A stretch of DNA of 64,000 nucleotides, from the NCBI GenBank assembly GCA_036172245.1, contig JAYWIR010000044.1, positions 744,001-808,000 of the forward strand, given 5' to 3'. The stretch comes from Raillietiella orientalis (lineage: Eukaryota). Each line of letters opens with the position of its first letter. Positions within the stretch are counted from its first letter, which is position 1. Of the stretch, positions 46,936 to 47,157 are shown piece by piece. Under the pieces are notes generated by a model. That model had not been told where the DNA came from. It saw only the letters and a list, made by a program, of their open reading frames with translations, and made no database searches. The translations under genes and the position numbers were made by a program.

Positions 46936-47157
46936 GAGCCTGCAGTAACGCTTTGTGAACAACTGAAAACTTTATTACCAGATAAGTTGTCTAGGTTTTT
47001 CTTTTCAGATAATGGTTCAAGTGCTGTTGAGATAGCACTAAAAATGACCCATCAGCACTTGTGGAACCAGGGAAACCATGAAAGAACTACCTTCTTGAGC
47101 TTTGAAGGGGGATATCATGGAGATACGTTTGGCGCAATGAGTGTGGGTGTTAAGTCT
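46936..47157 (+). pseudogene. bioA: Bacterial adenosylmethionine-8-amino-7-oxononanoate aminotransferase internal fragment (endosymbiont-derived)
   Basis: Encodes EPAVTLCEQLKTLLPDKLSRFFFSDNGSSAVEIALKM...FLSFEGGYHGDTFGAMSVG, with BioA motifs SDxGS.AVE.A.KM and GYHGDTFGAMSV. Only 74 codons, intronless, and more AT-rich than its flanks. Confidence 0.9.

Follow-up and report, generated by a model that had tools for sequence, protein, structure and literature searches.

Wolbachia-derived DNA in the nuclear DNA of arthropods and nematodes (NUWTs) is non-functional and decaying, as is the piece of DNA described here. Nothing essential sets our locus apart from typical NUWTs; it consists of one piece only, which is very short (257 bp) and comes from the accessory biotin operon. 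The horizontally acquired bioA gene of the whitefly Bemisia tabaci is functional in the insect. The whitefly BioA (P0025) resembles our case in that a BioA of the mobile-operon lineage is encoded on a chromosome, in that instance an insect one; however, it is full length (434 aa), shares only 74% identity with the fragment and has its place in the tree outside the Wolbachia clade, whereas the fragment is unable to encode an enzyme. The mobile biotin operon (BOOM) was defined in PMC7750005, which also describes several independent acquisitions in Wolbachia. Our fragment belongs to the Wolbachia BioA branch of this operon, but the window (the whole 64-kb stretch of DNA that was analysed) contains one internal gene fragment and not the operon. 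The operon is uncommon among Wolbachia, as the original prediction had assumed: the genome survey in PMC9894559 gives it for 7 of 110 new Wolbachia genomes.

Two described cases combine Wolbachia biotin genes with a host genome. According to the operon passages of PMC11376236, the f element, a Wolbachia insert in the Armadillidium vulgare genome, has kept the biotin operon in complete form, and, as at our locus, Wolbachia biotin-operon DNA is thereby found in a crustacean nuclear genome. The f element is very large, with all six bio genes kept, whereas our insert retains approximately one fifth of bioA, is frameshifted and has no other bio gene within 64 kb. Massive transfers from a Wolbachia lineage bearing the biotin operon into Rhodnius are outlined in bioRxiv 10.1101/2022.09.06.506778; like our fragment, they are footprints of a past operon-bearing Wolbachia in a host genome. 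The Rhodnius segments were delimited in that preprint by a nucleotide identity to wCle above 95% and are hence recent, whereas our insert is 83% identical to the sole main-clade Wolbachia reference DNA and is visibly decayed. Nuclear Wolbachia inserts with biotin genes are, as a class, already in print in the portions of these two reports that deal with the f element and Rhodnius. A lone bioA shard of the kind described below was not found in a full-text literature search, which covered the main text of articles.

Translation of the in-frame part of the insert (Table 1) gave 74 residues without a stop, which correspond to residues 84-157 of BioA (approximately 426-431 residues at full length) and include the GS(T/S)A and YHGDT stretches. 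The top NCBIfam model was TIGR00508 bioA (E 2.2e-30, profile positions 69-150 of 419), and ranks 2-4 were also occupied by bioA equivalogs, ahead of every other aminotransferase. The TIGR00508 score of 105.6 bits was below the curated cut-off of 405 and, consequently, below the level of a full-length enzyme. All 19 solved structures (PDB) matched at E<=1e-10 were BioA enzymes. Within the stop-to-stop frame that encloses the insert and parts of both flanks (46801-47577, 258 codons), the Pfam Aminotran_3 match (E 1e-15, profile positions 63-144 of 403) was confined to frame residues 39-121. When four full-length BioAs were compared with the window by tblastn, a single locus was detected (E 1e-39 to 9e-33, with 1e-39 for the Wolbachia BioA); other BioA parts were absent from the 64 kb by this method, all remaining matches having E>=0.44. 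The match is far beyond chance, and by its sequence the in-frame part is clearly assignable to bioA, in agreement with the 74 uninterrupted BioA codons reported originally. The fragment aligned with residues 87-154 only of the E. coli enzyme (429 residues), so the catalytic PLP-binding lysine, which we take to be Lys274 in E. coli numbering, lies outside it. The insert lacks the start and the stop of bioA as well as the catalytic-lysine region.

Table 1. Positions of the insert, its surroundings and other features of the window.
Feature	Position	Strand	Evidence
In-frame part of the insert, 74 codons	46936-47157	+	translation, NCBIfam bioA, tblastn
Tail past the deletion, bioA-homologous DNA in shifted frame	47157-47192	+	blastn to L001
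Whole Wolbachia-derived insert (putative), 257 bp	46936-47192	+	blastn to L001
Left flank, 53.6% GC	46436-46935		no match to protein families or to Wolbachia; not repeated elsewhere in the window
Right flank, 60.2% GC	47193-47692		no protein-family match, no Wolbachia similarity
Glucose-6-phosphate 1-epimerase exon	35125-35841	+	Pfam Aldose_epim, E 2e-13
Second Wolbachia shard, 254 bp, 91% identical to G001	21159-21412	- relative to Wolbachia genes	search against G001

The fragment had originally been taken to end at 47157. This position proved to be the point of a frameshift, and bioA homology extends 35 bases further at the DNA level. The insert corresponds to nucleotides 250-513 of the 1296-nt gene; when it was aligned by blastn with the bioA locus of a Wolbachia MAG (L001), 218 of 264 columns were identical (83%), with one 7-base gap in the window. 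The deletion behind this gap, located at approximately 47156/47157 with a placement that is ambiguous by a few bases, shifts the reading frame. The similarity to bioA begins exactly at GAGCC (46936), with an abrupt stop at 46935/46936, and is gone after CTGTTTTA (47192), that is, after TTTTA. Only short repeats at chance level were seen when target-site duplications and terminal repeats were sought at the junctions, and the search for copies of the flanks within the window revealed no empty (uninserted) site. The GC content of the insert was 38.5%, and that of its 74 codons was 41.4%, both below the values for the two flanks (Table 1), which agrees with the earlier description of an AT-rich piece in GC-rich DNA. 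The CpG observed/expected ratio was 0.32 in the insert and approximately 0.85 over 2 kb of its flanks.

The whole window was divided into four pieces for a search of the Wolbachia genome containing the L001 locus (G001; E<=0.01), and two matches were obtained: the bioA piece and a second piece near-equal to it in length (257 and 254 bp). The second shard runs across a gene boundary, from the 3' end of bamB into the 5' part of the gene for dihydrolipoyl dehydrogenase (lpdA). It is located in AT-rich host DNA, 25.5 kb from the bioA shard, and derives from an unrelated locus. No further Wolbachia similarity was detected between 46300 and 47800 at E<=10 or between 38000 and 56000 at E<=0.01. Eleven Bio proteins of one Wolbachia and one Cardinium operon were also used as queries against the window. 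Only bioA was matched and none of bioB, bioF, bioH, bioC and bioD was present, the best non-bioA result being E 0.061 over 26 residues; the earlier statement that no other bio genes lie nearby was accurate. The window holds the bioA fragment only and not the six-gene BOOM operon, the order of which in loci of the donor type (L001 and the Cardinium locus L013) is bioB / bioF bioH bioC bioD bioA. As a separate observation, the bioF frame of L001 (5126-5758) spans 210 codons compared to 378 in L013, and the BioA of L001 carries several private replacements in the region of the fragment; the biotin operon may be decaying in the L001 strain too.

These data bear on the possibility that the shard is the remnant of a much larger insertion, either the operon or a large Wolbachia block, the rest of which was erased by deletion or turnover. 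A second Wolbachia shard in the same window would suit such a history, and inserts with a complete operon do exist, as the operon passages of PMC11376236 document for the f element of Armadillidium vulgare. The second shard, however, comes from the bamB/lpdA junction, which is unrelated to bioA, and the similarity at the bioA shard ends abruptly on both sides without fading. The flanks (54-60% GC) contain no trace of Wolbachia even at the most permissive threshold applied to them. Moreover, bioD immediately precedes bioA in the operon, so a larger insert would be expected to carry it, and both bioD and the rest of bioA are missing. We consider a larger original insertion unlikely, and the transfer of a short piece of Wolbachia DNA is the reading that we prefer.

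The donor was investigated at the level of proteins, DNA and phylogeny. The protein search covered 5.8 billion proteins with lengths of 131-2000 residues and 2415 of its 2426 candidates were matches. The 19 best rows were 82-89% identical to the fragment over its whole length, with the next row at 78%. They included 12 named Wolbachia proteins, two proteins from a spider assembly and five unnamed ones; the named Wolbachia were the bedbug, Nomada, Andrena, planthopper, dwarf spider and cat flea strains, several group A strains and MAGs. The fragment shared 66 of its 74 residues (89%) with the Wolbachia BioAs P0002 and P0003, compared to 52 of 74 (70%) with Cardinium and with a Rickettsia, and 73-76% with Mesenet. 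The insert was also closer to L001 at the DNA level (83%) than to five other reference loci (70-76%), for which blastn gave 76% (Mesenet), 73% (mite Wolbachia), 72% (Cardinium), 72% over 184 columns (Rickettsia MAG) and 70% (Rickettsiales MAG). The genome-contig collection, which contains one genome per species, provided two Wolbachia bioA loci only. A search for closer bioA DNA with an exact 24-base pattern of the insert returned no stretches in metagenome contigs. The two BioAs from the spider assembly (Trichonephila clavata; P0010 and P0018) were 84-88% identical to the fragment and fell in the Wolbachia clade; they may represent symbiont contigs or inserts in that assembly.

A BioA tree of 46 rows was constructed by a quick maximum likelihood search (LG+C20+F+G4) from full-length references and the fragment, which fills 17% of the columns. 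The fragment fell within a Wolbachia-type clade of 19 rows (SH-aLRT 90), formed by the 12 named main-type Wolbachia, the two spider-assembly rows, four unnamed rows and the fragment itself, and was assigned to this clade as a whole rather than to a particular position within it. The cat-flea strain wCfeT, Mesenet, the Cardinium group, the whitefly protein and Rickettsiales all branched outside. Sites were regarded as diagnostic if at least 16 of the 18 main-clade rows agreed and the alternative donor differed. At such sites, the fragment had the main-clade residue in 12 of 13 cases with Cardinium as the alternative, in 12 of 14 with a Rickettsia, and in 8 of 9 and 10 of 11 with the two Mesenet proteins; over nine comparisons this agreement ranged from 4/6 up to 13/15, and the residue of the alternative donor was never found. 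The fragment's membership in the main Wolbachia biotin-operon clade is supported by these sequence comparisons, although the AU test does not reject a grouping with Cardinium: forcing the fragment into the Cardinium clade lowered the log-likelihood by 7.39 (p 0.293), a test that has low power with 74 residues. The homology search and the BioA phylogeny, both of which had been proposed as checks of the original prediction, upheld its view that the fragment originated from an endosymbiont operon, since the best matches are biotin-operon BioAs of Wolbachia, including that of the bedbug strain.

It is very improbable that the fragment came from another BOOM-bearing bacterium, such as Cardinium, Rickettsia, Mesenet or a Midichloria-like symbiont. 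The operon does move among these symbionts, as described in the relevant sections of PMC7750005, and the AU result would allow Cardinium. Against such a donor stand the lower protein and DNA identities to these bacteria, the complete lack of diagnostic sites shared with any of the nine alternatives and the occurrence, in the same window, of a shard with 91% identity to a core locus of Wolbachia.

A Wolbachia origin of the fragment raises the matter of the DNA in which it is embedded. The insert is located inside a 64-kb stretch that does not contain any N. The window holds 103 stop-free frames that are 150 codons or longer, and a Pfam scan of 73 long stop-free frames across it gave one match, with none for the other 72. 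Since only 1 of 73 frames matches Pfam, there is no indication that the GC-rich DNA encodes proteins, whether bacterial or other. The sole match was the glucose-6-phosphate 1-epimerase exon, which is situated in an AT-rich stretch, 11 kb from the insert. Its homologues numbered 157 at E<=0.001 among 170 candidates, and every named one among the 120 listed was from an insect or crustacean, with approximately 60-75% identity. On this basis, the host is a pancrustacean arthropod, which supports the claim that the piece lies in an animal chromosome.

The flanks had been described as host and repeat DNA. The exon 11 kb away speaks for the first part of that description; the second was not confirmed for the immediate flanks, for which no second copy was found. 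Within the window, no other copies of 45300-49500 were identified, and the nearest tandem repeats to the insert start at 49851. These are purine-rich, with the unit AGGAAGA and its multiples, and occupy 49851-49927 and 51016-51187; the GC and AT skews are strong around them, at 51-53 kb. No Rfam RNA families were detected anywhere in the window. The composition of the window was observed to be strongly divided into two phases: the regions at approximately 21-26 kb and 34-37 kb have 35-41% GC and contain the host exon and one shard, and the remainder is mostly at 50-73% GC, with a peak at 15-18 kb and many long stop-free frames.

Slightly less credible again than a different bacterial donor is an assembly artefact, in which symbiont reads would have been built into a host contig. 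Both junctions of the insert are taken from the assembled contig. A chimera, however, has one joint, whereas the 257 bp have host-like DNA on both sides within a contiguous stretch, and the frameshift together with the loss of invariant residues described below would not be expected of a gene in a living symbiont.

Relative to its best matches, the fragment differs at eight residues (K92Q, T112S, V116I, A121T, Y122H, Y124H, W125L and R131H). Four of these replacements (T112S, V116I, Y122H and W125L) affect positions that are invariant in all 27 reference BioAs compared, and A121T and Y124H affect positions that are nearly invariant among them. Over the 74 codons, 34 nucleotide differences separate the window from L001. 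When these differences were polarised with four outgroup loci, approximately 19 were assigned to the window branch, 12 to the L001 branch and three were ambiguous, a split that is rough given that L001 is the only main-clade Wolbachia DNA reference and has changes of its own. The window branch had 13 AT-to-GC changes, of which one (site 135.2) probably occurred in the reference instead, versus three GC-to-AT changes. This excess was not significant (p 0.11) and possibly reflects drift towards the GC-rich surroundings.

The partial nature of the gene, its frameshift and the loss of residues that are invariant in the references are the grounds on which the bioA fragment is judged non-functional and incapable of encoding the enzyme, as had been expected from the absence of the PLP-binding lysine region. 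A frameshift and lost residues of this kind are what neutral decay after transfer would leave behind. The 74 open codons are compatible with chance and are uninformative on selection: in simulations with random substitutions they stayed stop-free in 57% of cases with 11 changes, 38% with 19 and 20% with 34. When short annotated look-alikes of the fragment were sought in the protein collection, four matches with at most 59% identity were obtained and no orthologous copy was found. The recruitment of the piece into a host transcript, as an exon or a new gene, is the least probable of the alternatives, for although the 258-codon frame runs without a stop through the insert and into the flank on either side, the window is rich in long stop-free frames and almost all of those tested lack a family match, the 74 codons often remain open by chance, the BioA frame is broken by the 7-base deletion and no short protein resembles the fragment closely.

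The insert is very probably a dead nuclear Wolbachia transfer (a NUWT) from an operon-bearing strain, located in non-coding, GC-rich pancrustacean DNA. The donor piece would have been approximately 264 bp from within the bioA gene of a Wolbachia carrying BOOM. A stray fragment of this symbiont DNA was most probably captured by end joining at a chromosome break in the germ line; after joining, neutral drift would have led to the 7-base deletion, the replaced residues and, possibly, the shift towards GC. A more far-reaching proposal, which we regard as doubtful, is that an extinct infection with an operon-bearing Wolbachia would have left no record other than the shard, the present symbionts, if any, being without the operon, and that shattered symbiont DNA of approximately 250 bp, the size of both shards in the window, would have served repeatedly as filler at germ-line breaks.

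In genome annotation, a gene should not be called here; the stretch is to be masked as a fragment of a bacterial pseudogene. The value of the shard is historical. It would represent a biotin-operon fossil in a host chromosome, and it follows from a bioA shard of the Wolbachia type that the host lineage appears to have once been infected by a biotin-operon-bearing Wolbachia, a strain of an uncommon type; the original prediction of an encounter with an operon-bearing symbiont is sustained to this extent. Its further suggestion, of a possible nutritional symbiosis, is weak: the parts of PMC7750005 and PMC11376236 that discuss provisioning caution that carriage of the operon is not proof of provisioning or nutritional mutualism, and the shard provides no evidence that the symbiont fed its host. 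If the shard does record an extinct operon-bearing infection, it would serve as a marker of palaeosymbiosis.
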